A DNA stretch of 64,000 nucleotides from Clostridiales bacterium (GTDB lineage: Bacteria > Bacillota > Dehalobacteriia > UBA7702), in the NCBI GenBank assembly GCA_036644995.1, contig JAVXOZ010000002.1:50128-114127 (forward strand), written 5' to 3'. Positions 7,027-37,660 of this stretch are shown piece by piece (position 1 is the stretch's first letter; each line of letters opens with the position of its first letter). The notes under the pieces were generated by a model. It worked only from the letters and a program-made list of their open reading frames with translations, did no database searches and had not been told where the DNA came from. Made by a program: the position numbers and the translations under genes.

Positions 7027-7866
7027 CTAATCTTCAAAAGTTAAGGGATAAATTTCGTTTTTTTTCATCCCGTATTTATCGGCTATAATTTGAGCGGCTA
7101 TTTTAGCTTTAACACCTTGTTCTGTTAAGGTATTTAGCTCTGTTTTCAATTTTTGGGGTGAGGGGATTTCCAAATTTTCGTTTTTGGGGGGTGGGGCAAT
7201 TACCAAAACCATCTCACCTTTTAATTCTGTATTTTCTGCCATTTCTATCATCGCCCCAAGGGGCATTCGGTAGTAGCTCTCATGGATTTTTGTTAATTCA
7301 CGGCATAAGGTGGCTTCCCTGTTGCCCAAAGCCGCAAAAATATCCGCCAAGTCCTTTGCCAGAGCGTGGGGAGCGATATATAAAATTAAGGTTGTGGGAA
7401 TTTTTTCTAAAATTGTTAAGCGCTCTTTGCGTTCTTTTTTTTGCTTGGGTAAAAACCCTTCAAAGGTAAAATAGCGGCAATCCTGTGCCGAGGCAGTTAA
7501 AGCAGAAAGCACCGCATTGCCACCGGGAATGGGGTGAATAGCCAAATTTTCCATAGCTGCGGCTTTAACTAAATCTTCCCCGGGGTCTGAAATTCCGGGG
7601 GTGCCTGCATCGCTAATTAAGGCGATGGATTTTCCCTCTTTTAGCAAGGTTAAAAATTCTTCACGGCGTTTTGCTGCATTGTGTTGGTGGTAGCTTACCA
7701 TAGGTGTTTTAATATTAAAATGGTGTAATAATATACCGCTGTGGCGAGTATCTTCGGCACCGATGAGGTCTACATTTTTTAATATTTCAATACCTCTTAT
7801 GGTCATATCCCCTAAATTGCCAATGGGGGTTGCCACCAAATACAAGCCGGGGTCTAATTCCGCCAT
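7027..7866 (-). CDS. rsmI: 16S rRNA (cytidine1402-2'-O)-methyltransferase
   Basis: LYLVATPIGNLGDMTIRGIEIL...IGAEDTRHSG tetrapyrrole-methylase fold typical of RsmI/YabC. Confidence 0.9.
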   Translation of the reverse strand: MAELDPGLYLVATPIGNLGDMTIRGIEILKNVDLIGAEDTRHSGILLHHFNIKTPMVSYHQHNAAKRREEFLTLLKEGKSIALISDAGTPGISDPGEDLVKAAAMENLAIHPIPGGNAVLSALTASAQDCRYFTFEGFLPKQKKERKERLTILEKIPTTLILYIAPHALAKDLADIFAALGNREATLCRELTKIHESYYRMPLGAMIEMAENTELKGEMVLVIAPPPKNENLEIPSPQKLKTELNTLTEQGVKAKIAAQIIADKYGMKKNEIYPLTFED

Positions 7867-8594
7867 GCTTTCTCCTTTAAAATCCTTTGGGTTTGTGGGG
7901 TTAATTCCCCATTTTTACAGTGTATTATTAAAGTTTCCTCTGTTGTTTGTGTGAGAGCAGAGGTTTTTATATATTCTAAAATTACTAAATATGGCTTTTT
8001 TTCCGCTTTGGATTTTAGCCATAAACGGCGATTTTCGGTAAATCCGCATTTTTTTGCCAAAGCCGTTGTTTCCTCTAAGCGTTGGGGTGGATAAGCCAAG
8101 GTTAAAGTGCCGTTATCCTTTAAAATTGCCCCACATTGTTGAAAAAATGTAGGACTGTCCCACTCTATTTCCACCTTTGCCATGGCTATTTTGGGGTTTT
8201 TTGGCAAGCGGCATTGATTTTTTTTGTAGTAGGGTGGGTTGGCTATTATCCCATGGAAAGCATTTTTGCCAAAGATTTTTTCTGCCTCCATGGCATTGCC
8301 TAAAACTACTTGGATATCGGTGTTGTTTTCCGCCATGTTGAATGTTGCCAAAGCTACATTTTCTGCATCTATTTCCAAGGCTGTAATTTGGGATAATGGG
8401 CTTTTTCCCTGTATTAGCAGGGGTAAAATGCCGTTGCCCGTGCCTATATCCAATATTTTGGGGTGATTATTGGGGTTGAAAAAGCAAGCTAAAATCACCG
8501 CATCCAAAGAAAAGCAAAAGCCTTTTTTATTTTGATAAAGGCTAAAGCCGCCCCAAATGAGGTCATCTTTACGAAGATTTTCGTTATTCTTCAT
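7854..8594 (-). CDS. SAM-dependent methyltransferase, tRNA1(Val) (adenine37-N6)-methyltransferase-like (YabB/YfiC family)
   Basis: DIGTGNGILPLL SAM motif and NPPY motif; positional equivalent of B. subtilis yabB. Confidence 0.8.
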   Translation of the reverse strand: MKNNENLRKDDLIWGGFSLYQNKKGFCFSLDAVILACFFNPNNHPKILDIGTGNGILPLLIQGKSPLSQITALEIDAENVALATFNMAENNTDIQVVLGNAMEAEKIFGKNAFHGIIANPPYYKKNQCRLPKNPKIAMAKVEIEWDSPTFFQQCGAILKDNGTLTLAYPPQRLEETTALAKKCGFTENRRLWLKSKAEKKPYLVILEYIKTSALTQTTEETLIIHCKNGELTPQTQRILKEKAWRN

Positions 8595-8892
8595 CTTTGT
8601 GGTTGTTTTCGGTGTTTTTTTCTTTTAATTTTTCTTTTTCCATAAAGGAAACGCAAAATAGGCATTCGCCTTCACGGACTTCCCCAAAGTGACTGGGACA
8701 AACGTGAAACCCTGCATCAAACAAGGCAAGTAGGTTGCTTTTGCCCGATACCGCCATATTTTTTTTGCGTATTATCGCCTGCATGGAGATGTTATCCGCT
8801 TCTAATTGTTCAACATATTTTCTAATAGTTGCCAATTCATCACCCATGGCTTTGATTTTTTCTTCCAACTCTAAAAGTGCTTGACCCAGCAT
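8584..8892 (-). CDS. yabA: DNA replication initiation-control protein YabA
   Basis: 102 aa; N-terminal coiled coil and C-terminal Zn-binding Cys/His cluster (HVCPSHFGE...CLFC). Conserved position between yaaT and yabB. Confidence 0.8.
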   Translation of the reverse strand: MLGQALLELEEKIKAMGDELATIRKYVEQLEADNISMQAIIRKKNMAVSGKSNLLALFDAGFHVCPSHFGEVREGECLFCVSFMEKEKLKEKNTENNHKDEE

Positions 8893-8917
8893 GGATTATC
8901 CCCCCTGTGCACAGTTT

Positions 8918-9634
8918 TTATTTATCTTCTACAATCTCTTTATTTAAGATTTCTTCCACAGGTAAATCTGCTTCTTTTTTTCTGACCGGTGGTACTACGG
9001 AATCGTCGTTTTCATATTTTAAGCAGCACATGAGTCTGCCGCAAATACCCGATATTTTCCCCGGATTTAAGGAGAGATTTTGGTGTTTTGCCATTTTGAT
9101 GGAAACAGGCTGAAACTCATCTAAAACGCTGTGACAGCACAGTACACGGCCACAAGAGGCTATGCCACCCAGCATTTTTGCCTCATCACGGACACCAATT
9201 TGTCTAAGCTCAATACGGGTGCGGAAAATTCCTGCCAAGTCCTTAACCAATTCCCGAAAATCCACTCTGCCATCGGCGGTGAAATAAAAGATGATTTTGC
9301 TTACATCAAAGGTATATTCCACATCTATAAGCTTCATTTCTAAATTATTGGCACGTATTTTTTCCAAACAAACTTTAAAGGCTTCCTTTTCCTTTTCCTT
9401 ATTTTCTTTGTTGGTGGCTTCATCTTCTTCGGTGGCTTTTCTCAGCACATCTTTTAAGGGCTGCACTACTTTGTTTTCACAAACTTCTCTTGGTGGTATA
9501 ACCACATTGCCAAATTCCACACCACGGGCTGTTTCCACTATTACGTTGTCGTGGAGTGCGATGTTGAAATTAACAGGGTTAAAATAATAAATTTTACCCG
9601 CTTGTTTAAAGCGGACACCTACAATGGTTTCCAT
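8918..9634 (-). CDS. ricT: PSP1-domain protein (YaaT/RicT, stage 0 sporulation/RNase Y regulator family)
   Basis: METIVGVRFKQAGKIYYFNP... PSP1 C-terminal domain; conserved holB-yaaT-yabA synteny. Confidence 0.85.
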   Translation of the reverse strand: METIVGVRFKQAGKIYYFNPVNFNIALHDNVIVETARGVEFGNVVIPPREVCENKVVQPLKDVLRKATEEDEATNKENKEKEKEAFKVCLEKIRANNLEMKLIDVEYTFDVSKIIFYFTADGRVDFRELVKDLAGIFRTRIELRQIGVRDEAKMLGGIASCGRVLCCHSVLDEFQPVSIKMAKHQNLSLNPGKISGICGRLMCCLKYENDDSVVPPVRKKEADLPVEEILNKEIVEDK

Positions 9635-18904: not shown

Positions 18905-19849
18905 CTATTGGATAATGCGAGTGCCGGATTCCCCTAAAATTGCTGCGGGAGCTTTTTCTAAAGAGGCAATTACCGCCACTCTGTTCTTGCCGCTTTTGGC
19001 AAAATCTATGGCGGCTTCTACCTTGGGTAGCATACTGCCAGGGGCAAAATGACCTTGGGCTATGTATGCTTCAGCCTCGGCTACGGTTATTTCTTTTAGC
19101 TCTTTTTCATCGGGTTTGCCAAAATTTATGGATACTCTGTCCACCGCTGTTAGTATAAAAAAGTATTCCGCATCCACCAAGGCTCCAAGCTTTGCTCCGG
19201 CAAAGTCTTTATCTATAACTGCGGCTACGCCTTGGTAGTGGTCTATGCTTTCTTTAATCACCGGTATGCCACCGCCGCCACAGGCTATAACCACAAATTC
19301 GTGGTCTAAAAGATTTAAAATGGAATCTTTTTCCACTATATTTTGGGGCTTGGGTGATGGTACCATGCGGCGATAGCCACGCCCTGCATCTTCCTTAAAT
19401 ACCATATGTGGGTATTTTTTCATTAAATCTTCGGCTTGGCTTTGGGTGTAATAAGCCCCAATGGGCTTTTGGGGGTTTTCAAAGGCAATGTCGTTTTTAT
19501 CCACTTCCACTTGGGTTACCACTGTGGCAACGTGCCAAGGCATATTTTGATTCCGCAGCTCCGCTAACAAGGCTTTTTGCAGGTGATAGCCTATGTAGCC
19601 TTGACTCATGGCGGCGCATTCCGCCAGTTCCATAGGTGGGATTTTTTCGGAATTTTCGCTGCCGTAATCAAAGGCATTTTTAATAACCCCAACTTGAGGG
19701 CCGTTGCCGTGGGTAAGTACTATTTCATAACCTTGGGCAATTAAGCCCACCAATGCCGGAGCGGCTATTTTTAATTTTTCCTGCTGTTCTTTGCCATCGT
19801 TGCCCAAGGCATTGCCACCTAAGGCAATTACAATTCTTGGTTCTTTCAT
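18905..19849 (-). CDS. arcC: Carbamate kinase
   Basis: MKEPRIVIALGGNALG... amino-acid-kinase fold. Start ATG 19849 with RBS TAAGGAGAAA; the track's longer ORF to 19957 extends into repeat copy C. Confidence 0.9.
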   Translation of the reverse strand: MKEPRIVIALGGNALGNDGKEQQEKLKIAAPALVGLIAQGYEIVLTHGNGPQVGVIKNAFDYGSENSEKIPPMELAECAAMSQGYIGYHLQKALLAELRNQNMPWHVATVVTQVEVDKNDIAFENPQKPIGAYYTQSQAEDLMKKYPHMVFKEDAGRGYRRMVPSPKPQNIVEKDSILNLLDHEFVVIACGGGGIPVIKESIDHYQGVAAVIDKDFAGAKLGALVDAEYFFILTAVDRVSINFGKPDEKELKEITVAEAEAYIAQGHFAPGSMLPKVEAAIDFAKSGKNRVAVIASLEKAPAAILGESGTRIIQ

Positions 19850-19916
19850 GTTTCTCCTTAATGGTCTGAAAATTTCCCTTAGAGCAATATCCTTCAGATT
19901 GATGAAAATTGCACTT

Positions 19917-20039
19917 AGGCTGTGGATAAAGTTTGCTATTGGGCAAAATCCCTTCATCGTGACTGCTTATGTACATCTAAGTACATAAGCAGACGCTGCT
20001 CGGGGAGTTTTACCGAATCTAAGGCTTTCTTATCAGCCT
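19917..20039 (+). repeat. Interspersed palindromic repeat, copy C (inside the agmatine deiminase operon)
   Basis: AGGCTGTGGATAAAGTTTGCTATTGGGCAAAATCCC...TGCTTATGTACATCTAAGTACATAAGCAG...GGGGAGTTTTACCGAATCTAAGGCTTTCTTATCAGCCT. Extension ...TTTTTGACAATCTG runs to 20075. Bracketed by the 20 bp direct repeat AGATTGATGAAAATTGCACT (19896-915 and 20076-095). Confidence 0.9.
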
Positions 20040-20133
20040 AATATCTTGGCAAAAAACTATGTTTTTGACAATCTGAGATTGATGAAAATTGCACTAACGG
20101 CTTTTAAATCTGTTGATAGTAATTGGTGTTATT

Positions 20134-21225
20134 TTATGGTCTGGGAATTTGCTGGGTAATGCAGTGGATATTGCCGCCGCCCAAGAGAATTTCTCTGGCA
20201 TATATCCCCACAATTTCACGGTTGGGGAAGCATTTTTTTAAGGTTTCTGCGGCTTTTTCGTCGTTGGGGTCTTTAAATTTGGGATAAATAACAGCATTGT
20301 TGCAAATGTAAAAATTTACATAAGATGCCGCTAAGCGATCTCCTTCAACTCTGGGGAGTGTGCCGTTTACTGCATCTACACCTTGACTTTCTTCTTCGGT
20401 GATGAGGATGGGTTTGGGTAGGAGCATTTTGTGCACGTTTAATTTTCTGCCTTTGGCATCGGTGGAATTTTCCAAAACCTTTAAGCAGTTGGCGGAAATT
20501 TCATATTGAGGGTCGTTTTTATCCTCTGTCCAAGCTAAAATAACTTCACCCGGAGCGGCATAGGAAAAAATATTGTCCACATGGCCATTGGTTTCATCAT
20601 TGTAGATGCCGTTTTTAAGCCAGATGATTTTTTCCAGTCCCAAGTATTCTTTAAGTGTGTTTTCAATTTCTTCTTTGGACATATGGGGATTTCTGCCTTG
20701 ACTTAAAAGGCATTCCTCCGTGGTAATTAAGGTGCCTTCACCGTCTGTGTGGATGCTGCCGCCTTCTAAAATAAATTCATCTAAAGGGTAGTAATTTAGC
20801 CGCTCCGCTTCGCAAACTTTTTGTGCCAAGGCATCATCTTTATCCCAAGGAAAATATAGTCCGTCCACTAAGCCGCCCCAAGCATTAAAACGCCAATCTA
20901 CACCACGGGTTTCTTTGCCGTTTACCACACAGGTAGGGCCGCAATCACGTACCCAAGCATCGTCATTGGCAATTTCTAAAACTCTGACGTTATAGGGGAG
21001 CATTCCACGGGCATTGGCATATTGATCGGAATTTACCGCCACTGTAACTTCTTCAAATTTGCTGATTGCCGTTGCTACCTCTGTGAATACTTTTTGGGCG
21101 GGTTTGCCACCTAAACGCCAGTTATCTGTGCGTTGGGGCCAGATGATATAAGTGCTTTGGTGGGGTTCAAATTCCCCGGGCATACGAAAACCGTCTGCTT
21201 TGGGGCTTGTTTCAAATGCTCTCAT
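20134..21225 (-). CDS. aguA: Agmatine deiminase
   Basis: 363 aa; porphyromonas-type peptidylarginine deiminase fold; WVRDCGP and a C-terminal [13 protein letters not shown] catalytic Cys motif. Confidence 0.9.
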
Positions 21226-22599
21226 TTATTTATCTCCTTTTTCAAGTTTTTTTACGCTTTGGGCGGCTATTATTTCACCGATGACAACAGCCAAAACCGT
21301 GCCTGCTAAAATCGGAATTTTTAAGCCCAGCTCCTCGGGGTCTAAGCTTAAGGGCACTGCACTTAAAACCGTGGCAATGATGAGTAAACCAAAGGGTACC
21401 CATGTCATTAAGGATAGCTTTACTTTGCCGCCGCTGATTTTAAAGGGTCTGTGGATATCCGGCTCGGTTTTGCGGAGCTTTAAAAATGCCGGGAAAATTA
21501 AAATATAGGAAATTAAAAGGGTAATCATATTTAAGGAAAAGAAGCTCCAAAATAAATCTTCACTGGGGATTAACGGCGCAGCTAAAACCATAACACTGGC
21601 TATTACCCCATTCATGATATTGGCACCCAAAGGCATTTTGTTCTTTTTATTTTCCGAGGCAAAAACCTTGGGCATACTTTTATCTTGGGCGGCATATTGT
21701 GCCACATAGTTTACACCCAAAGACCAAGAAATTGGGTTGGCAATAATGGTGTAAAGAAATACCAAACCAAAAAGCAGCAGTAAAATTCCTGAGGTTTGCC
21801 CTGTTAGCATCATAAAGCTTTCAATTAAGCCGTTGGATGTGGTTAAATTCTCCACAGGGATGGCTACGCTGATGCCAAATGCTGTTAATATATAAAAACC
21901 TGCAATGAGGCAACCGCCAATTATTATGGCTTTTGGTATGTCCTTGGCAGGGTTTTTCATATCACCTGCAAAGGTAGTTACCACCTCAAAGCCCATGAAA
22001 TTAAAGAGGATAACGGCGATGAATGAAAGGCTCATAATATCAAAGGATGGTAACATGGATTGTACGGTAAATTCATTGGCTACACCTTTGGTTAATGCCA
22101 CGTAGATACCTAATCCACCCAAAAGCAGCATAATACCTGCTTTGAAAAAAGCGGCGATGTTTAAAATCCATTTACTTTCGGAAACCGGGTAAAAGCTTAC
22201 ACCTACCACCAGCCAAATATATAGTAGCTGTATGGCTAAAATCCAAAATATGGGGATATCCCAACCGGTAATTTGCAGTAAAATATCGGTGAAGAGCACT
22301 GCCAAAGAACCCATCCACAGGGGAAAGTTAATATAATAATACCAAGCTACTCTGGAGCCCCATTTGTGACCAAAGGCTCTTTTTACCCAATCGTAAATTC
22401 CCCCTTCATCTTCATAGGTGGTGCCCAATTCTGCGGATATTAAGCCATAAGGCAGAAAAAAGCCGATGAGGAGCACCAGCCACCAGAAAAATTGAGCGTT
22501 GCCTATTACCGCAGCAGGAGCCGCACTCTCCACCACCAAAACAATGCAAACTGCGGCTAATACTGCATCAAATAGGCGAAATTCTTTCTTTTTGGACAT
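21226..22599 (-). CDS. aguD: APC-family amino acid permease, putative agmatine:putrescine antiporter
   Basis: 457 aa, 12-13 TM APC fold; sits between ptcA and aguA. Confidence 0.75.
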   Translation of the reverse strand: MSKKKEFRLFDAVLAAVCIVLVVESAAPAAVIGNAQFFWWLVLLIGFFLPYGLISAELGTTYEDEGGIYDWVKRAFGHKWGSRVAWYYYINFPLWMGSLAVLFTDILLQITGWDIPIFWILAIQLLYIWLVVGVSFYPVSESKWILNIAAFFKAGIMLLLGGLGIYVALTKGVANEFTVQSMLPSFDIMSLSFIAVILFNFMGFEVVTTFAGDMKNPAKDIPKAIIIGGCLIAGFYILTAFGISVAIPVENLTTSNGLIESFMMLTGQTSGILLLLFGLVFLYTIIANPISWSLGVNYVAQYAAQDKSMPKVFASENKKNKMPLGANIMNGVIASVMVLAAPLIPSEDLFWSFFSLNMITLLISYILIFPAFLKLRKTEPDIHRPFKISGGKVKLSLMTWVPFGLLIIATVLSAVPLSLDPEELGLKIPILAGTVLAVVIGEIIAAQSVKKLEKGDK

Positions 22600-22611
22600 T
22601 CAAAAGCCCCC

Positions 22612-23622
22612 TTAGAATATTTCTGCCAATAAGGCGTCAATTTTATGTTTTGCGGTGTGAATGGCATATTCCGCAGGGTTGGCAACGCCCAAAAGATATA
22701 CAAGAATTGCCCGCATTGCGGTTAAGCGGTTTTCTGCTTGGTCAAAGGCAATGGAATGGGCACCATCCAAGGCTTCATCTGTAATTTCTTCCCCACGGGA
22801 GGCAGGCAGGCAGTGGAGCAATTTTACTGTGGGTTTGGCTTTTTTCAGCATATCCTCGGTAACTTGGAATTTTGGCATGAAGATGTTTAAGCGTTCTTCC
22901 TTGGATAATTCCGCATTGTAAAGCCCATACCAAACATCGGTGTATATGAAATCTGCACCTTCCAGTGCGGTATCTGCATTATCCGAAAGGGTAAAAGACC
23001 CACCGGAAATTTTGCAGTTTTCTTTGGCAATTTCTTGAAATTCATTATTTAATTGGTGGGTATTAGGGCCAAACTGGGTGAAGTGCATACCCATTTTAGT
23101 GGTAATCATTGCGGTGGAAGCACAAACCTGGGTGGCATCACCCACAAATACTATTTTTAAATCGTTAAACCGTGCATTGGCAGGTTTGTGCTCAAAAATT
23201 GTGGTGATATCCCCAATTTCTTGGGTGGGATGGTTGTAATCGGACATGGCATTTATCACAGGGATGGTGGCGTGTTGTGCTAAACCTGCCACTGTTTTAT
23301 GCTGATCTACCCTTGCCATGATGATATCCACCAACCGAGAGAGGACACGGGCGGTATCCTCCATGGTTTCGTGGCCCCCTAATTGGATTTGCCCCGGTGC
23401 CAGATATTGGGCATGGCCCCCTAATTGAGTCATTGCTGTTTCAAAGGAAACCCTGGTGCGTGTGGAGCTTTGCTCAAAAACCATGCCCAAAGTTTTGTTT
23501 GCCAAAAGTGGCGGATAGTAACCATCTTTTATGGATTTTTTTAAACCTACACCTAAATGAATCATTTTTAAAATGTCCTGCTTGGTGTAATCTTTTGTGG
23601 TGACTAAATCTTTTTGTTTCAT
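22612..23622 (-). CDS. ptcA: Putrescine carbamoyltransferase (ornithine carbamoyltransferase family)
   Basis: STRTRVSFE carbamoyl-phosphate motif, HPTQ and HCLPA motifs. Start ATG 23622 (MKQKDL..., RBS GGAGG); the track ORF to 23727 is an upstream extension. Context with aguD-aguA-arcC favours PTC over OTC. Confidence 0.65.
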
Positions 23623-23865
23623 AATAACCTCCAATTTCTTTTGGTTAATATACCCATAGAATTGTGGTTTATGTAAAAGAGAAGTGGGACTTTTTGACAA
23701 AAAATTAAAGCAAGAAAGACTTGCCAAGAAAAGTACTTTATGCTAAACTGTGTTTTGTAATGAGGCATACATGAAGTGTGCTCGATATAGTTTATAAATC
23801 CTTTTGATAGATAAACTTTGGTACCTATCTCGGAAAAGTTAAATATTGTATAAATATGTGAAGTA

Positions 23866-27703: not shown

Positions 27704-28714
27704 ATGAGTTGTTTGGACAAAAGACACGTTTTAGAAATAGAAGATCTTTCCATCTCCTTTACTCAATATGAAAAAGGTTTAAAACAAATAGATTTACAGG
27801 TTATTTCCAATCTTAATGTATCGGTGCATGAAGGGGAAATAGTGGCGGTGGTGGGTGCCAGTGGCTCGGGAAAAAGCTTACTTGCCCATGCGGTGCTGGG
27901 ACTTTTACCACCCAATGCCAATGTACAGGGAAAAATATATTTTGATGATGAATTGATGAGTGCGGAGCGGATAAAAGAGCTGCGTGGTGAAAATATCGCT
28001 TTGGTACCCCAAAGTGTTAATTATCTGGACCCTTTAATGAAAGTTGGCAGACAAGTGCGGAAAAGCAGAAGGGATAAGCAGTTTGTAAATGCCCAACAAG
28101 ATTTATTTAAACGCTATGATTTGGATAAACGCACCGATGAGCTGTTTCCCTTTGAATTATCCGGTGGTATGGCTCGTAGGGTGCTTTTATCCTCTGCTTT
28201 GATGGAAAGCCCACAGCTTATTATTGCTGATGAACCAACCCCAGGTATGCACCTTTCTTTGGCTAAAAAAGCCATGGCGGATTTTCGCAAATTTGCCAAT
28301 GAAGGCAATGGGGTTTTGCTCATTACCCACGATATTGAATTGGCTTTTGAGGTGGCGGATCGCATTGCTGTTTTTTATGCAGGAACCACTGTGGAAGAAG
28401 CAAAAATAGAAGATTTTAAAAGCGAAGAAACCTTGCGACATCCCTACACCAAGGCTTTATGGCGAGCTTTGCCCCAAAATGGTTTTCAGGCATTGCCGGG
28501 AAATCAACCCTATGTGAAGGATATGCCACGGGGTTGCCCTTTTGCGCCCAGATGCAGTGAATTTACCCCGGAATGTGAAGGGGAGATACCCTTAAAAATT
28601 GTGCGTTGCGGTACTGTGCGTTGTATTCATGGTGACCCTGCCGAGGTTCATCAGCATCATCAGCATGGAGATAAATTCCACCATCATCATGGAGGGGAGT
28701 GTCATTCAGAATGA
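27704..28714 (+). CDS. ABC transporter ATP-binding protein (OppD/NikD-like) with His-rich C-terminal tail
   Basis: Walker A GASGSGKS, signature LSGGMARR, and the C-terminal tail HGDPAEVHQHHQHGDKFHHHHGGECHSE. Confidence 0.9.
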   Translation: MSCLDKRHVLEIEDLSISFTQYEKGLKQIDLQVISNLNVSVHEGEIVAVVGASGSGKSLLAHAVLGLLPPNANVQGKIYFDDELMSAERIKELRGENIALVPQSVNYLDPLMKVGRQVRKSRRDKQFVNAQQDLFKRYDLDKRTDELFPFELSGGMARRVLLSSALMESPQLIIADEPTPGMHLSLAKKAMADFRKFANEGNGVLLITHDIELAFEVADRIAVFYAGTTVEEAKIEDFKSEETLRHPYTKALWRALPQNGFQALPGNQPYVKDMPRGCPFAPRCSEFTPECEGEIPLKIVRCGTVRCIHGDPAEVHQHHQHGDKFHHHHGGECHSE

Positions 28715-33036: not shown

Positions 33037-33346
33037 GTTTAAAGAACCCTTATTCAGTAACTAAAACCGAAAAAGTATTAAATTAAATACAGAGATTAAC
33101 ATAGTACGAGTTCTATTTTAGTAAAGAAACCCAATCTCCTCCCACCGCAGCAGGGGGAAGTTTGAAGGGGGAGAAGCTCCCACCTTCATTATACTAATAG
33201 CAAAAATCTTCGAAATCGGCAAAAGAATTTTTTGGATTTTATTAAAAAAGCTGCGAAAATAAAAAGGAATTTTGTCGCTTTTTTAGGTCTTTTTTCCCTC
33301 TGATTTATATATAATTTATATAAACATAATTGGTCGGAGGGTGCTT

Positions 33347-33601
33347 ATGAATTGGGAAGATAGCTTTTACCCTTTGGTTGCCGGGAGTTTTCACCGATTG
33401 CCCGAAGAAATAAACGAAAATACTCGCTTTAAAAAAGATTTAAAAGTGGATTCCTTGGGCTTTTTGGAAATGATTTTAAATGTGGAATGCTATTATCACT
33501 GTGTTTTAGATGATGAGCTTTTGTCTTTGGTTATCACTGTGGGTGATTTAAAAAGACTTTTAGGTAGAAAAATAGCAGGAATGGTTGGAGTTTATGAGTG
33601 A
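33347..33601 (+). CDS. Acyl-carrier-protein-like small protein (DSL phosphopantetheine-attachment-like motif, Ser36)
   Basis: 84 aa; KKDLKVDSLGFLEMILNVE with Ser at position 36 as in ACP/DltC; RBS GGAGG precedes ATG 33347. Confidence 0.55.
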   Translation: MNWEDSFYPLVAGSFHRLPEEINENTRFKKDLKVDSLGFLEMILNVECYYHCVLDDELLSLVITVGDLKRLLGRKIAGMVGVYE

Positions 33602-34862
33602 TATTTTAAATAAAAAATACCATATAGCCATTATTGGCGGTGGTGCTTCGGGGCTGGCAGCGGCTATTGCTGCGAAAAAAACAGCCACGGCGGATTTATC
33701 CGTGGCTGTTTTTGAACGACAACTTAGAGTGGGGAAAAAATTGATAGCCACAGGCAATGGACGCTGCAACTATACCAATGTGAGTACCAAAGCCGAAAAT
33801 TATAATTTTTCTGCCCGAGAATTTGCAAAAATTGCCTTATCTAAATTTACACCGGAAAATAATATCTCCTTCTTTGAAAAATTGGGGATTTATCCTGATT
33901 ATGAGGAAAATGGCAAGGTTTACCCTTATAGTCACCAATCATCATCCTTCGTGGATGTGCTGCGGTTCAGTGCTGAAAACTTGGGCATTGAAATAATAAC
34001 CGAAACTGAGGTACAAGCTGTAAAACCCCATGGCATCTACTTTAAAGTCGCCACTGATATGGGGGATTTTGAAGCGAAAAAAGTTATTTTTGCCACAGGT
34101 GGCATGGCTTCCCCGGATTTGGGGGGCACCGTTAAAGGCTATAATTTGGCAAGGAGTATGGGGCACAGTGTTGGTGATTTATCACCTGCATTGGTTCAGA
34201 TTAAAACCGAAAATGATCTGCCCAAATCTTTAAAAGGTATAAAATTTTGGGGTAATGCCACTTTGAAATCCGCAGATAAAATTTTAGGAGAAGAACAAGG
34301 GGAAATATTATTTGCGGAATATGGGCTTTCGGGTTTGCCTATTTTGCAGCTTTCCTGCTATTTGGTGGGACAGCCCTTGGGGGATGTTTGGGTTTTTTTG
34401 GATTTTTTCCCTAAAATCAGTAAAAATGAATTAATCGAAATACTTAAGGAACGTCAAAAATTATTGGGACATTTGACTTTGGAAAATTATTTTACGGGAT
34501 TTATGAATAAAAAAACAGCCCAGCTTTTACTGAAACGCATTTTGGACAGGCAGTTGAGTTTTAAGGTTGAGGATTTATCTACAGAGGATATTTTCCGCAT
34601 AGCTTCAGGGGTAAAAGGGTTTAAATTAGCTGTGCAGGGTGTTACCGGTTGGAAAAATGCCCAAGTTACCGCCGGTGGTGTGGCAACCGCTGAGGTGTTT
34701 AATGAGAGTATGGAAAGTAAAATTGTACAGGGCATATATTTTTGCGGTGAATTGTTGGATGTTAATGGAGATTGCGGCGGCTTTAATTTGCAATGGGCTT
34801 GGAGCAGCGGTAGGCTCAGTGGAGAAAGTGCGGTAAAGGCATTGGGTATGGAAAATGATTAG
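33594..34862 (+). CDS. HI0933-family FAD flavoprotein (aminoacetone-oxidase-like NAD(FAD)-utilising dehydrogenase)
   Basis: IAIIGGGASGLAAAIAA Rossmann motif; HI0933-like fold. Start ATG 33594 overlaps the end of the ACP-like gene by 8 nt. Confidence 0.85.
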   Translation: MSDILNKKYHIAIIGGGASGLAAAIAAKKTATADLSVAVFERQLRVGKKLIATGNGRCNYTNVSTKAENYNFSAREFAKIALSKFTPENNISFFEKLGIYPDYEENGKVYPYSHQSSSFVDVLRFSAENLGIEIITETEVQAVKPHGIYFKVATDMGDFEAKKVIFATGGMASPDLGGTVKGYNLARSMGHSVGDLSPALVQIKTENDLPKSLKGIKFWGNATLKSADKILGEEQGEILFAEYGLSGLPILQLSCYLVGQPLGDVWVFLDFFPKISKNELIEILKERQKLLGHLTLENYFTGFMNKKTAQLLLKRILDRQLSFKVEDLSTEDIFRIASGVKGFKLAVQGVTGWKNAQVTAGGVATAEVFNESMESKIVQGIYFCGELLDVNGDCGGFNLQWAWSSGRLSGESAVKALGMEND

Positions 34863-36432
34863 AATAGATGAAATAAAGCTTCCTATAAATTATAGCGATG
34901 TTGATTTGTATAATGCCGTTGCCAAACGGCTTAAATCTAAAGTGGGACAATTTAAAAATGTAAAATTGGTGCGGAAGTCCATGGATGCCCGAAAAAAAGA
35001 GCAAATTCACTTTGTGGTAGGGGTAACCTTGGATTTTGTGGGAAATGAAGATAAAAAGATTAAGCAGCTAAAAGATAAGAAAATAACTAAAGCTGTAAAT
35101 TTCTCCTATAAAATGCCCATGGTGGATTATGGTGGCAGATATAGACCTGTGGTGGTTGGTGCAGGGCCATGCGGTATATTTGCCGCTTTGGTTTTAGCTG
35201 AAGCAGGGCTTAAACCCTTGGTGATTGAAGGTGGCAAAGATGTTGTTGAGCGTAAAAAAGATGTGGAAAACTTTTGGCAAAAGGGGCTTTTTTCACCTTC
35301 CAGCAATGTGCAATTTGGTGAAGGTGGTGCAGGGGCTTTCTCCGATGGGAAGTTAACCACAGGCACTAAGGATTTGCGGCATCGCCGTATTTTGGCGGAT
35401 TTTGTTAAAGCCGGAGCACCTGAAGAAATATTGTATTTAGCCAAACCCCATATAGGCTCGGATAATTTACCACATGTGGTGGAAAATTTGCGGCGGCGCA
35501 TAGAGAATTTGGGTGGGGAATATCGTTTTTCTACTTTGTTAAAGGACATAATTGTGGAAAAAAATGCCGTTACAGGTATTGTGGTGGAAAGTGATTTGGG
35601 TACGGAAACTTGGGATTGCGACCGCTTGATTTTGGCTTTGGGGCACAGTGCCCGTAATACATATGAAATGCTATACAGCCATGGTGTGGCTATGGAGCCC
35701 AAGGCTTTTTCCTTGGGAGTTCGTATTGAACACAGCCAAAGTGCAATAAATATTGCTCAATTTGGGGTAGATGAATTTGGGGCGGCGGATTATAAATTGG
35801 CGGTGCATTTGCCCAATGGTCGCTCCGCTTACACTTTTTGTATGTGCCCCGGTGGGGTTGTGGTTGGTGCAGCATCGGAAAATGGTGGTGTGGTAACCAA
35901 CGGCATGAGTGTTTTTGCCCGAGATGGAGTAAATGCCAACAGTGCTTTGTTAATTGGGGTTACGCCCCAAGATTTTCCCGGGGAGGAGCCTTTGGCGGGA
36001 ATGCGGTGGCAAAGGGATATTGAGGCAAAAGCTTTTTTGGCAGGGGGCGGTGATTTTGGGGCACCATGCCAAAGATTAGGGGATTTTATGGAGTATCGTC
36101 CCAGTTTGAGCTGTGGAAAAATTTTGCCTACATATTTACCACGGGTGCAAATGGGAGAGGTTGCTTCTTGTCTTCCTGATTTTATTGGCGAGAGCATTGC
36201 CATGGCTATACCGCTATTGGCAGCTAAGCTAAAAATATTTGATGACCCCGATGCTTTGCTTACCGCACCGGAAACACGCAGCTCTGCCCCTGTGAAAATT
36301 CTTAGAGATGAAGGTGGGGAAAGCAGTATAAAGGGGCTTTACCCAGCAGGGGAAGGCAGTGGCTATGCAGGTGGTATTATGTCCTCGGCGGCGGATGGCT
36401 TGAAAATTGGAGAAAATGTTTTAAAATTTTAA
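34855..36432 (+). CDS. COG2509-type FAD-dependent dehydrogenase
   Basis: N-terminal ~90 aa domain, then VVVGAGPCGIFAALVLAEAG FAD motif; overlaps the upstream flavoprotein by 8 nt. Confidence 0.85.
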   Translation: MIRIDEIKLPINYSDVDLYNAVAKRLKSKVGQFKNVKLVRKSMDARKKEQIHFVVGVTLDFVGNEDKKIKQLKDKKITKAVNFSYKMPMVDYGGRYRPVVVGAGPCGIFAALVLAEAGLKPLVIEGGKDVVERKKDVENFWQKGLFSPSSNVQFGEGGAGAFSDGKLTTGTKDLRHRRILADFVKAGAPEEILYLAKPHIGSDNLPHVVENLRRRIENLGGEYRFSTLLKDIIVEKNAVTGIVVESDLGTETWDCDRLILALGHSARNTYEMLYSHGVAMEPKAFSLGVRIEHSQSAINIAQFGVDEFGAADYKLAVHLPNGRSAYTFCMCPGGVVVGAASENGGVVTNGMSVFARDGVNANSALLIGVTPQDFPGEEPLAGMRWQRDIEAKAFLAGGGDFGAPCQRLGDFMEYRPSLSCGKILPTYLPRVQMGEVASCLPDFIGESIAMAIPLLAAKLKIFDDPDALLTAPETRSSAPVKILRDEGGESSIKGLYPAGEGSGYAGGIMSSAADGLKIGENVLKF

Positions 36433-36696: not shown

Positions 36697-36867
36697 TATG
36701 AAAAAATTTATTGGTATTCTCTTGGGAGTGTTGGCATTGTGTGTTTCTGTGGCGGCATTTATCTATGTTTTTAATGATAAGGAATGTTGCCCCTGTAAAA
36801 AGGTAAAAGAATTTTTCACCGAAAAAGATTTCACTGTTCTTCCTATGGAAGAGGATGCTGAGGTTTA
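36697..36867 (+). CDS. Small (56 aa) single-TM protein with CCxC motif
   Basis: MKKFIGILLGVLALCVSVAAFIYVFNDKECCPCKKVKEFF...; RBS GAGGTG 7 nt upstream. Below the track's length cutoff. Ends 8 bp before the K+ channel gene. Confidence 0.45.
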
Positions 36868-36874
36868 ATTTTAG

Positions 36875-37660
36875 GTGAATAATACATTTCCGTGGAAGCA
36901 ATTACAAATGCCCTATGAATTTTTAATGGCGGTTCTTGCTTTTATAAACTTATATTTTTATTATTTTGAATTTACCGGCGCATTGGATCCTCAAGGGGTT
37001 GAGGTGGCTCATGTTATTGATATTGCTACGATTGTGATTTTTTCCCTTGATTATTTAGTGCGGCTTTATTTAGCCAAAGATAAAAAACATTATTTACGGC
37101 ACAATGTTTTGGACCTTATTGCTTTGATTCCTTTAAATCCTGTATTTAGAGGGGCAAGGCTGTTTCGTTGTGTGGTGCTTTTTGCCAGATTTTTTAAAAG
37201 GCTCCGTTCTTTTAGTTCGGTAAATATGTTTCTTTATGTTTCTTTTGGCACTATTGTTGTGCTTTTAACCTCGGCTTTATTGGTGGCTCCCTTGGAAGGA
37301 ATGACTTTTTTTGAAGGAATTTGGTGGGGGGTTGTAACCATAGCCACTGTGGGATATGGGGATTTTATTCCTGTTACCACTCCGGGGCGGATAATTGCCA
37401 TGGTTTTAATGTTTACCGGTATTGGTTTTTTGAGTTTTTTAACAGGTACTGTTACCACCCATTATGTAAATGCCCGTATGGAAAGGGTGAGTATTCATTC
37501 CCAGCGTGGCATTATAAAGCATTATCAAAAACAACTTTATCATTTTGATGATATGACGGGTAAGGATATAGATGATATGTGCCATGCTTTAAATGCCTTG
37601 AAAAGCCAAGATTTAAAGGAAAAGGCGGCTAAGGAAAAGCCTAAAACCATTGGTGACTGA
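36875..37660 (+). CDS. Voltage-sensor-type 6TM potassium channel (TVGYGD selectivity filter, S4 with R every third residue)
   Basis: Pore VVTIATVGYGDFIPVT; S4-like RGARLFRCVVLFARFFKRLRS. Confidence 0.85.
   Translation: MNNTFPWKQLQMPYEFLMAVLAFINLYFYYFEFTGALDPQGVEVAHVIDIATIVIFSLDYLVRLYLAKDKKHYLRHNVLDLIALIPLNPVFRGARLFRCVVLFARFFKRLRSFSSVNMFLYVSFGTIVVLLTSALLVAPLEGMTFFEGIWWGVVTIATVGYGDFIPVTTPGRIIAMVLMFTGIGFLSFLTGTVTTHYVNARMERVSIHSQRGIIKHYQKQLYHFDDMTGKDIDDMCHALNALKSQDLKEKAAKEKPKTIGD

Follow-up and report, generated by a model that had tools for sequence, protein, structure and literature searches.

The 64,000-nucleotide stretch of DNA analysed in this study (the window; contig JAVXOZ010000002.1 of a Clostridiales bacterium, assembly GCA_036644995.1, positions 50,128 to 114,127 of the forward strand) carries three overlapping genes on its + strand, the first of which encodes a small protein resembling acyl carrier proteins (ACPs) and the other two flavin adenine dinucleotide (FAD)-dependent flavoproteins of the HI0933 and COG2509/VP0956 types. 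The small open reading frame (ORF), 84 aa in length, lies at 33347-33601, opens with an ATG, encodes a protein beginning MNWEDSFYPLVAGSFHRLPEEINENTRFKKDLKVDSLGFLEM and ends with a TGA at 33599-33601; a Shine-Dalgarno sequence, GGAGGG, is read at 33336-33341, 5 nt 5' of this ATG, and GGAGG- or GAGGTG-like sequences are found 5' of the starts in homologous loci. The HI0933-type gene (422 aa, 33594-34862) starts with the ATG at 33594 and ends with a TAG at 34860-34862, and the COG2509/VP0956-type gene (525 aa, 34855-36432) starts with the ATG at 34855. The stop of the small ORF and the start of the HI0933-type gene meet in ATGAGTGA, the stop of the HI0933-type gene and the start of the COG2509-type gene in ATGATTAG, each an overlap of 8 nt, and the three genes are one co-translated operon. 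Within the small ORF the TCC codon at 33452-33454 specifies Ser36 of the motif KVDSLGFLEM, a residue at the N-terminal end of helix II and the candidate site of 4'-phosphopantetheine attachment. The ORF with this motif and the two overlaps had been pointed out in an earlier reading of the window made from its letters alone (here the sequence-only reading), and both are present in the DNA as it described them.

The small ORF is a real gene whose product has the ACP fold. Its hidden Markov model (HMM) score against the PP-binding family PF00550 is 24.1 bits, exceeding the gathering score of 20.8 (E = 4.4e-5, residues 12-71), and it is the sole match of a generic-ACP HMM among all ORFs of at least 50 aa in the window (E = 9e-14). 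The AlphaFold2 (AF2) model, built on 40 homologues, is a four-helix bundle (helices 3-13, 36-50, 56-59 and 65-82) with a predicted local distance difference test score (pLDDT) of 85.2 and a predicted template modelling score (pTM) of 0.75, in which helix II begins exactly at Ser36; in a Foldseek search of the PDB the top 50 matches are all ACPs, with template modelling (TM) scores of 0.62-0.80 and a top probability of 1.00, among them those of Helicobacter pylori and Escherichia coli at TM 0.75-0.78 and root-mean-square deviations of 1.4-2.2 Å. The family match and the four-helix fold, which the sequence-only reading had named as checks, are both borne out. Aligned with E. coli AcpP, the small protein is 33% identical over 46 residues, and Ser36 stands opposite the attachment Ser. 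This alignment upholds what the sequence-only reading had made of a Ser "exactly at" position 36, but not the emphasis on the number, which includes the initiator Met in the count and has no weight. Judged by its sequence the small protein is not an AcpP orthologue: the cut-offs of the NCBIfam AcpP equivalogs (TIGR00517, PRK00982 and PRK12449) are missed, the best score being 34.3 bits against 66 and that for TIGR00517 being 28.9 against 70.45.

A word-indexed homologue search with the single sequence matched the small protein to itself only. An exhaustive phmmer search over 1.84 billion representatives gave 72 matches, and a profile search then returned about 38 clusters at 81-126 bits, clear of generic ACPs at 61 bits or less; the window protein itself scores 106.6 bits with the resulting subfamily HMM and 45.3 bits with the generic ACP HMM. 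No dedicated Pfam or NCBIfam model was found for this subfamily, which is rare and narrow, being restricted to one clade of uncultured gut and rumen Clostridia, and a scan of JGI metagenomes added a single true subfamily locus (L101), the other six matches being generic ACPs.

Residue conservation was counted in an alignment of 40 subfamily members, which have the signature T-R-F-[KR]-[KR]-D-L-K-x-D-[SAT]. Asp31, Leu32, Lys33, Asp35 and Glu47 are invariant, Thr26, Arg27, Leu40, Leu44, Asp56, Leu59 and Gly66 nearly so. The invariant Lys33 occupies the position of the Gly of the canonical DLGxDSL motif, and in the window copy the Asp at position 38 is replaced by Gly. The attachment column (position 36) holds Ser in 27 members, Ala in seven, Thr in five and Lys in one, so that 13 of the 40 are without Ser; 11 of these replacements fall in one group with the common motif DLKMD[AT]VDF, while P0002 (Thr) and P0008 (Lys) stand outside it. 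Canonical ACPs are far more acidic: their median net charge is -10.4, that of the subfamily -4.4. The ratio of nonsynonymous to synonymous substitution rates (dN/dS) of the small gene is 0.16-0.26, indicating purifying selection, and is 0.18 for a pair of loci that both lack the Ser (L098 with Ala against L100 with Thr). As a separate observation, P0005 and P0009, both secreted or lipoprotein-like, each carry three ACP repeats in tandem, and in each the third repeat has lost its attachment Ser (DLEMDEVD and DLGMDDLI), another case of ACP repeats drifting from the prosthetic-group site.

Genomic context was compared over ten distinct subfamily loci (L087-L101 and the window). An HI0933-type gene lies directly downstream of the ACP-like gene in all ten, with junctions of -23, -17, -8, -8, +4, +4, +8 and +119 nt, and a COG2509-type gene comes next in every locus whose contig goes on and whose HI0933-type gene is uninterrupted. 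On the other side aroK is found immediately upstream of the ACP-like gene in nearly all loci and otherwise two genes upstream; the aroK-ACP gap is 10-62 nt in most of them, 310 nt in the window and 1401 nt in L093, where aroE lies on the other strand. The organisms compared have diverged deeply: relative to the window, identities in the related loci are 48-61% for AroK, 42-53% for the HI0933-type protein, 54-58% for the COG2509-type protein and 34-54% for the ACP-like protein, whose gene has thus been conserved together with the flavoprotein genes, as the sequence-only reading had anticipated. The loci with Ala36 (P0093, L098) and Thr36 (P0079, L100) keep the order aroK-ACP-HI0933, the start of the HI0933-type gene being overlapped by 17 nt. 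Two loci deviate: in L094 (5276-6500) an intact ACP-like ORF precedes an HI0933 sequence that is broken up among three frames, with no COG2509-type gene after it, and in L093 (5242-6500) the HI0933-type gene is frame-shifted. Both come from metagenome-assembled genomes (MAGs) of one study (GCA_040766505.1 and GCA_040766525.1), and the frame splits are either gene decay or assembly indel errors.

The family assignments of the two flavoproteins given in the sequence-only reading proved correct. The 422-aa protein matches PF03486 at 234.3 bits (cut-off 50), PF22780, the barrel/H2TH domain, at 77.8 bits (cut-off 27) and TIGR00275 at 384.3 bits (cut-off 183.8), with both the Rossmann domain and the inserted barrel/H2TH domain covered, and is a FAD flavoprotein of the COG2081, or BaiN/RdsA/aminoacetone-oxidase, family. 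Its PDB matches 2I0Z, 3V76, 9X7Q, 4CNJ and 2GQF have E values of 1e-43 to 7e-51, and, because they all score alike (153-177 bits), it is without clear orthology to any of them. The 525-aa protein matches the C-terminal domain PF21688 (FAD-depend_C) at 222 bits, has the N-terminal domain PF28550 (DUF8436) listed in the precomputed matches for the identical protein, and aligns over residues 1-523 with VP0956 (PDB 3NLC, E = 3e-148).

When GTDB representative genomes were scanned with the 525-aa protein, 80 loci at 49-53% identity were obtained (L007-L086), mostly from Oscillospiraceae, Acutalibacteraceae and other Clostridia. An HI0933-type gene adjoins the COG2509-type gene in 62 of the 76 informative loci, upstream in 60 and downstream in two, the reversed order being that of L045 (Pelotomaculum) and L086 (Sporotomaculum). 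An ACP-like ORF upstream of the HI0933-type gene was sought by tblastn, ORF listing and HMMs; none turned up within about 6 kb in any of the 80 loci, whose 4854 ORFs were all covered by the HMMs, and no other conserved neighbour of the pair emerged: in the downstream census no family accounted for more than four of 105 neighbours, and the upstream neighbours were equally varied. As the two genes are so often adjacent, have no ACP-like ORF near them and are otherwise flanked by unrelated genes, the flavoprotein pair is a self-sufficient, widespread module and the ACP-like gene an addition restricted to one clade. The idea, put forward in the sequence-only reading, of a cassette built around a carrier is not borne out on this count, and the co-occurrence of the three genes holds in one direction only: the ACP-like gene always adjoins the HI0933-type gene, but the pair stands without it in 62 loci. 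One of the 80 loci, from an Oscillospiraceae MAG (L018), has immediately downstream of the main COG2509-type gene a second, distant COG2509-like paralogue (7595-8965), 25% identical to the window protein.

Such pairs are known from work on bile acids. PF03486/COG2081 is a non-isofunctional family that includes BaiN, a 3-dehydro-bile-acid delta4,6-reductase, a weak aminoacetone oxidase, and E. coli YhiN, now called RdsA, which uses FAD and NADH to make dihydrouridine 2449 in 23S rRNA; the chemistry characterised so far in the family mainly consists in reducing, with NADH and FAD, a C=C bond in conjugation with a carbonyl, as in 3-oxo-delta4,6-steroids (BaiN) and in the uridine C5=C6 bond of 23S rRNA (RdsA) (PMC11317573). 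Dihydrouridines 2449 and 2500 also occur in C. sporogenes, which has no gene of the YhiN cluster (PMC11317573). In Clostridium scindens baiN (CLOSCI_00523) is followed by CLOSCI_00522, "baiO", encoding a 61-62 kDa "NAD(FAD)-utilizing dehydrogenase" (PMC6521386), an adjacency conserved in Clostridiales and Eggerthella (PMC6521386, PMC10936602). BaiO was inactive on bile-acid intermediates (PMC9645264, PMC12065433), neither BaiN nor BaiO supported the 7-alpha-dehydroxylation of chenodeoxycholic acid (CDCA) in vitro, and baiN was not induced by the bile acid cholate (PMC10936602). The HI0933-COG2509 adjacency described here looks like the published baiN-baiO pairing, yet is far wider than bile-acid metabolism. 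In the literature on COG2509, 3NLC, VP0956, PF21688 and DUF8436 nothing on function was found, nor was any account found of an ACP-like protein tied to HI0933/BaiN-type or COG2509-type flavoproteins. The description of both flavoprotein families as widespread but functionally uncharacterised, which was made in the sequence-only reading, accordingly stands as to their spread and as to COG2509, but not as to the HI0933 family with its BaiN, aminoacetone oxidase and RdsA members, nor as to the pair, which looks like that of baiN and baiO.

Taking this together, we favour, at roughly even chances, the interpretation that the small protein assists the HI0933-type flavoprotein as an accessory partner, specific to this lineage and translated together with it, and that its conserved role is a matter of protein-protein contact and not of covalent carriage. 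The 422-aa and 525-aa genes would be this organism's copy of the two-gene flavoenzyme module that is widespread in Clostridia (baiN-baiO), and the 84-aa gene a diverged acpP-like paralogue that one clade would have gained between aroK and the HI0933-type gene and would then have kept under purifying selection. The protein might bind the HI0933-type flavoprotein non-covalently and in stoichiometric amounts, as an accessory subunit, an adaptor or a modulator, docking via the conserved acidic face of helix II (Asp35, Glu41 and Glu47) and the subfamily-specific Asp31-Leu32-Lys33 turn. Physical binding, the choice of flavoprotein partner and any effect on catalysis are what we infer here, and phosphopantetheinylation of Ser36 is possible in the window copy, though it would not be a feature conserved across the subfamily. 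A bound helper subunit appears likelier than a substrate carrier because the pairing is limited to one narrow group and because a third of the relatives have no Ser at the attachment position.

Several observations weigh against an accessory partner of this kind. The complex between the small protein and the flavoprotein is itself a proposal drawn from sequence, synteny and a single-chain model. The HI0933-type proteins of ACP-bearing loci show no obvious clade-specific docking or basic patch when set against those of ACP-less loci, but just an insertion of one residue and a few hydrophobic substitutions, differences that are confounded with phylogeny. Among the multi-domain matches, which are generic tandem ACPs, a nonribosomal peptide synthetase (NRPS)-like ligase-acyltransferase and hexapeptide transferases, there are no fusions of an ACP with an HI0933-type or COG2509-type protein. 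Since the ACP-bearing loci form one clade with a common upstream aroK, synteny by descent is not fully separable from functional linkage. Ser36 is kept in most deep branches and its losses fall in roughly three lineages, a pattern that would fit a holo-ACP function that is ancestral and prevails to this day, and the Thr found in some members may merely reflect helix N-capping. Finally, that BaiO is of the COG2509 type, on which the parallel with baiN-baiO depends, is inferred from its 61-62 kDa size, its annotation and its position.

The alternative that best survives, although we hold it to be unlikely, is that the small protein is a true carrier: Ser36 would be phosphopantetheinylated by a housekeeping AcpS or Sfp, and the HI0933-type enzyme, followed by the COG2509-type enzyme, would reduce or oxidise a substrate attached as a thioester, such as a 2-enoyl group or another unsaturated acyl group, the Ser-less members being secondary losses with altered function. 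In ACPs the residues equivalent to Asp35 and Glu47, both invariant in the subfamily, contribute to AcpS and partner recognition. The window copy carries D-S-L where helix II begins, with its Ser aligned to that of AcpP, the Ser is the majority state (27/40), including most deep branches, and the small gene is translationally coupled to the flavoprotein gene; an enoyl-thioester would also suit the ene-reduction beside a carbonyl that is known from the HI0933 family (PMC11317573). Against this, the 13 Ser-less members retain the synteny, the gene overlap and the low dN/dS (0.18), the canonical Gly33 has become an invariant Lys, and Asp38 is Gly in the window copy. Genes for a phosphopantetheinyl transferase (PPTase), acyl-ACP ligase, acyltransferase, ketosynthase or thioesterase, by which a carrier would be modified, loaded or relieved of its cargo, are absent from the window and the ten related loci. 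AcpS is normally encoded elsewhere in the genome. Moreover, the occurrence of the pair without an adjacent ACP in 62 loci makes it improbable that its substrate is intrinsically ACP-bound. Of the carrier-bound pathway suggested in the sequence-only reading, what remains is a genuine gene for an ACP-fold protein, set against a variable Ser and the lack of nearby loading and PPTase genes. We are more doubtful still about the specific form of this idea, a dedicated holo-carrier presenting a phosphopantetheine-tethered unsaturated acyl or other thioester substrate to BaiN/BaiO-type enzymes.

It is improbable, to a greater degree, that the small protein has nothing to do with the flavoproteins and serves shikimate metabolism (aroK) or some other partner, its position being inherited synteny within one clade. 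Such a role would fit the presence of aroK one or two genes upstream in every ACP-bearing locus, the membership of all these loci in one clade, and the persistence of an intact ACP-like ORF in L094, where the HI0933 sequence is split in three frames and no COG2509-type gene follows, as well as the frame-shifted HI0933-type gene of L093. These frameshifts may however be assembly errors, coming as they do from two MAGs of one study, and the ACP-HI0933 junctions overlap by 8-23 nt or leave gaps of 4-8 nt, compared with aroK gaps of 10-62, 310 and 1401 nt. A function tied to aroK is less likely because the ACP-like gene is coupled to the HI0933-type gene and not to aroK, from which a 310-nt spacer with a hairpin divides it in the window, and we know of no role for an ACP in the shikimate pathway. 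That the ORF arose by chance or is what remains of a decaying acpP duplicate, in either case without function, as the NCBIfam AcpP scores far under their cut-offs, the rarity of the family and the variable Ser might suggest, is very improbable and essentially excluded, being contradicted by the selection and conservation data (an intact frame with five invariant residues across lineages whose AroK proteins are 48-61% identical, and a dN/dS of 0.16-0.26) and at odds with a good Shine-Dalgarno sequence and a confident fold prediction.

The aroK-ACP spacer of the window (33037-33346) is long at 310 nt compared with the 10-62 nt of most related loci. A terminator-like hairpin (GCGAAAAT...ATTTTGTCGC, followed by TTTTTT) is read on the + strand at 33253-33278, with the T-run extending to 33284, and is present in both the minimum free energy (MFE) and the centroid structures of the folded RNA of 33037-33346 (z = -2.8 relative to shuffled sequences); it is a weak call because the consensus scanner did not report it, the consensus promoter and terminator scan having found nothing that exceeded shuffled expectation. 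In this genome the hairpin probably sets the ACP-flavoprotein operon apart from aroK. A TATAAT lies at 33310-33315 within the same spacer, and an Rfam scan of the 310-nt leader gave no match, the sole sub-threshold hit being rliB (E = 0.11).

The flanks of the operon are of a housekeeping nature: lgt and aroK precede it, and it is followed by a small membrane ORF, a K+ channel gene and rpoB/rpoC. In the annotated 64-kb window there are no fab, acpP, polyketide synthase (PKS), NRPS, PPTase or acyl-ligase genes. The remark in the sequence-only reading that the cluster sits apart from the fab/acpP locus is accurate insofar as there is none within 64 kb, but the window holds no such locus and the statement means only that.

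Other features of the window and of related loci were recorded along the way. The small membrane ORF (56 aa, 36698-36868, + strand) encodes a predicted small membrane protein (MKKFIGILLGVLALCVSVAAF...ECCPCKK) and lies directly 5' of the K+ channel gene (Ion_trans_2, 36875-37660); a 56-aa ORF, 42% identical to it, occupies the same place in L097, and small ORFs of 51-70 aa follow the COG2509-type gene in L087, L091 and L095. Further upstream, at 27704-28714 (+ strand), an Opp/Nik-type ATP-binding cassette (ABC) ATPase has a His-rich C-terminal tail (...HGDPAEVHQHHQHGDKFHHHHGGECHSE), which suggests the binding or sensing of a metal (nickel or cobalt) by the transporter. On the - strand, 18905-23727 contains genes for a carbamoyltransferase (OTCace domains), an amino-acid permease, a PAD_porph agmatine deiminase and an AA_kinase-family, carbamate kinase-like protein, an apparent agmatine-deiminase pathway cluster.

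In a very large share of Clostridia the HI0933-type and COG2509-type genes are neighbours, and surveys of microbiomes routinely count them as "bile-acid genes". In one clade a small protein is always co-encoded and co-translated with the pair, which provides an experimental handle on BaiN/BaiO-type enzymes: its binding partner would show which flavoprotein it contacts, and its modification state (apo, holo or acylated) would point to the class of substrate or rule out a thioester. Were it a holo-carrier after all, the native substrates of the BaiN/BaiO-type pair would be pantetheine or coenzyme A (CoA) thioesters, and the ACP-less majority would use CoA esters or the housekeeping ACP. The subfamily is at the same time a natural example of an ACP fold drifting from its prosthetic group under selection, which bears on the recruitment of ACPs as structural subunits. 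What is new is the recruitment, to a known enzyme pair, of an ACP fold whose prosthetic-group site has degenerated; what was known is the baiN-baiO adjacency.

Compared with AcpP (PF00550; E. coli, PDB 1L0H), the small protein has the same four-helix fold with D-S-L at the start of helix II and conserves the equivalents of Asp31, Leu32, Asp35 and Glu47, but it scores at most 34 bits against AcpP equivalog cut-offs of 66-106, its subfamily has exchanged the Gly for an invariant Lys, is much less acidic and is without the attachment Ser in 13 of its 40 members, and its gene stands beside flavoprotein genes and not fab genes. Flavoenzymes that act on ACP-bound substrates do exist, namely the enoyl-ACP reductase FabK and the acyl-ACP dehydrogenases. 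Should the small protein be a carrier, they would provide the working model for the cassette, a flavoenzyme acting on a thioester-tethered acyl group; their folds (a TIM-barrel flavin mononucleotide (FMN) protein and the ACAD fold) are however unrelated to the FAD fold with two dinucleotide-binding domains encoded in the window, and their systems, unlike the window subfamily, come with loading and condensing enzymes and an invariant attachment Ser. VP0956 of Vibrio parahaemolyticus (PDB 3NLC), a structural-genomics entry, resembles the 525-aa protein over its whole length. RdsA (YhiN), which is FAD and NADH dependent (PMC11317573), has the PF03486/COG2081 membership and the three-domain architecture of the 422-aa protein, but acts alone, without a COG2509 or ACP partner. 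A further counterpart is baiN-baiO of C. scindens: BaiN reduces 3-oxo-delta4,6 bile acids in vitro, the window has no bai operon within its 64 kb, and an ACP-like gene is absent from the 80 loci and has not been described with baiN-baiO, yet both systems place directly after the HI0933-family gene a second flavoprotein gene, with a product of about 60 kDa.

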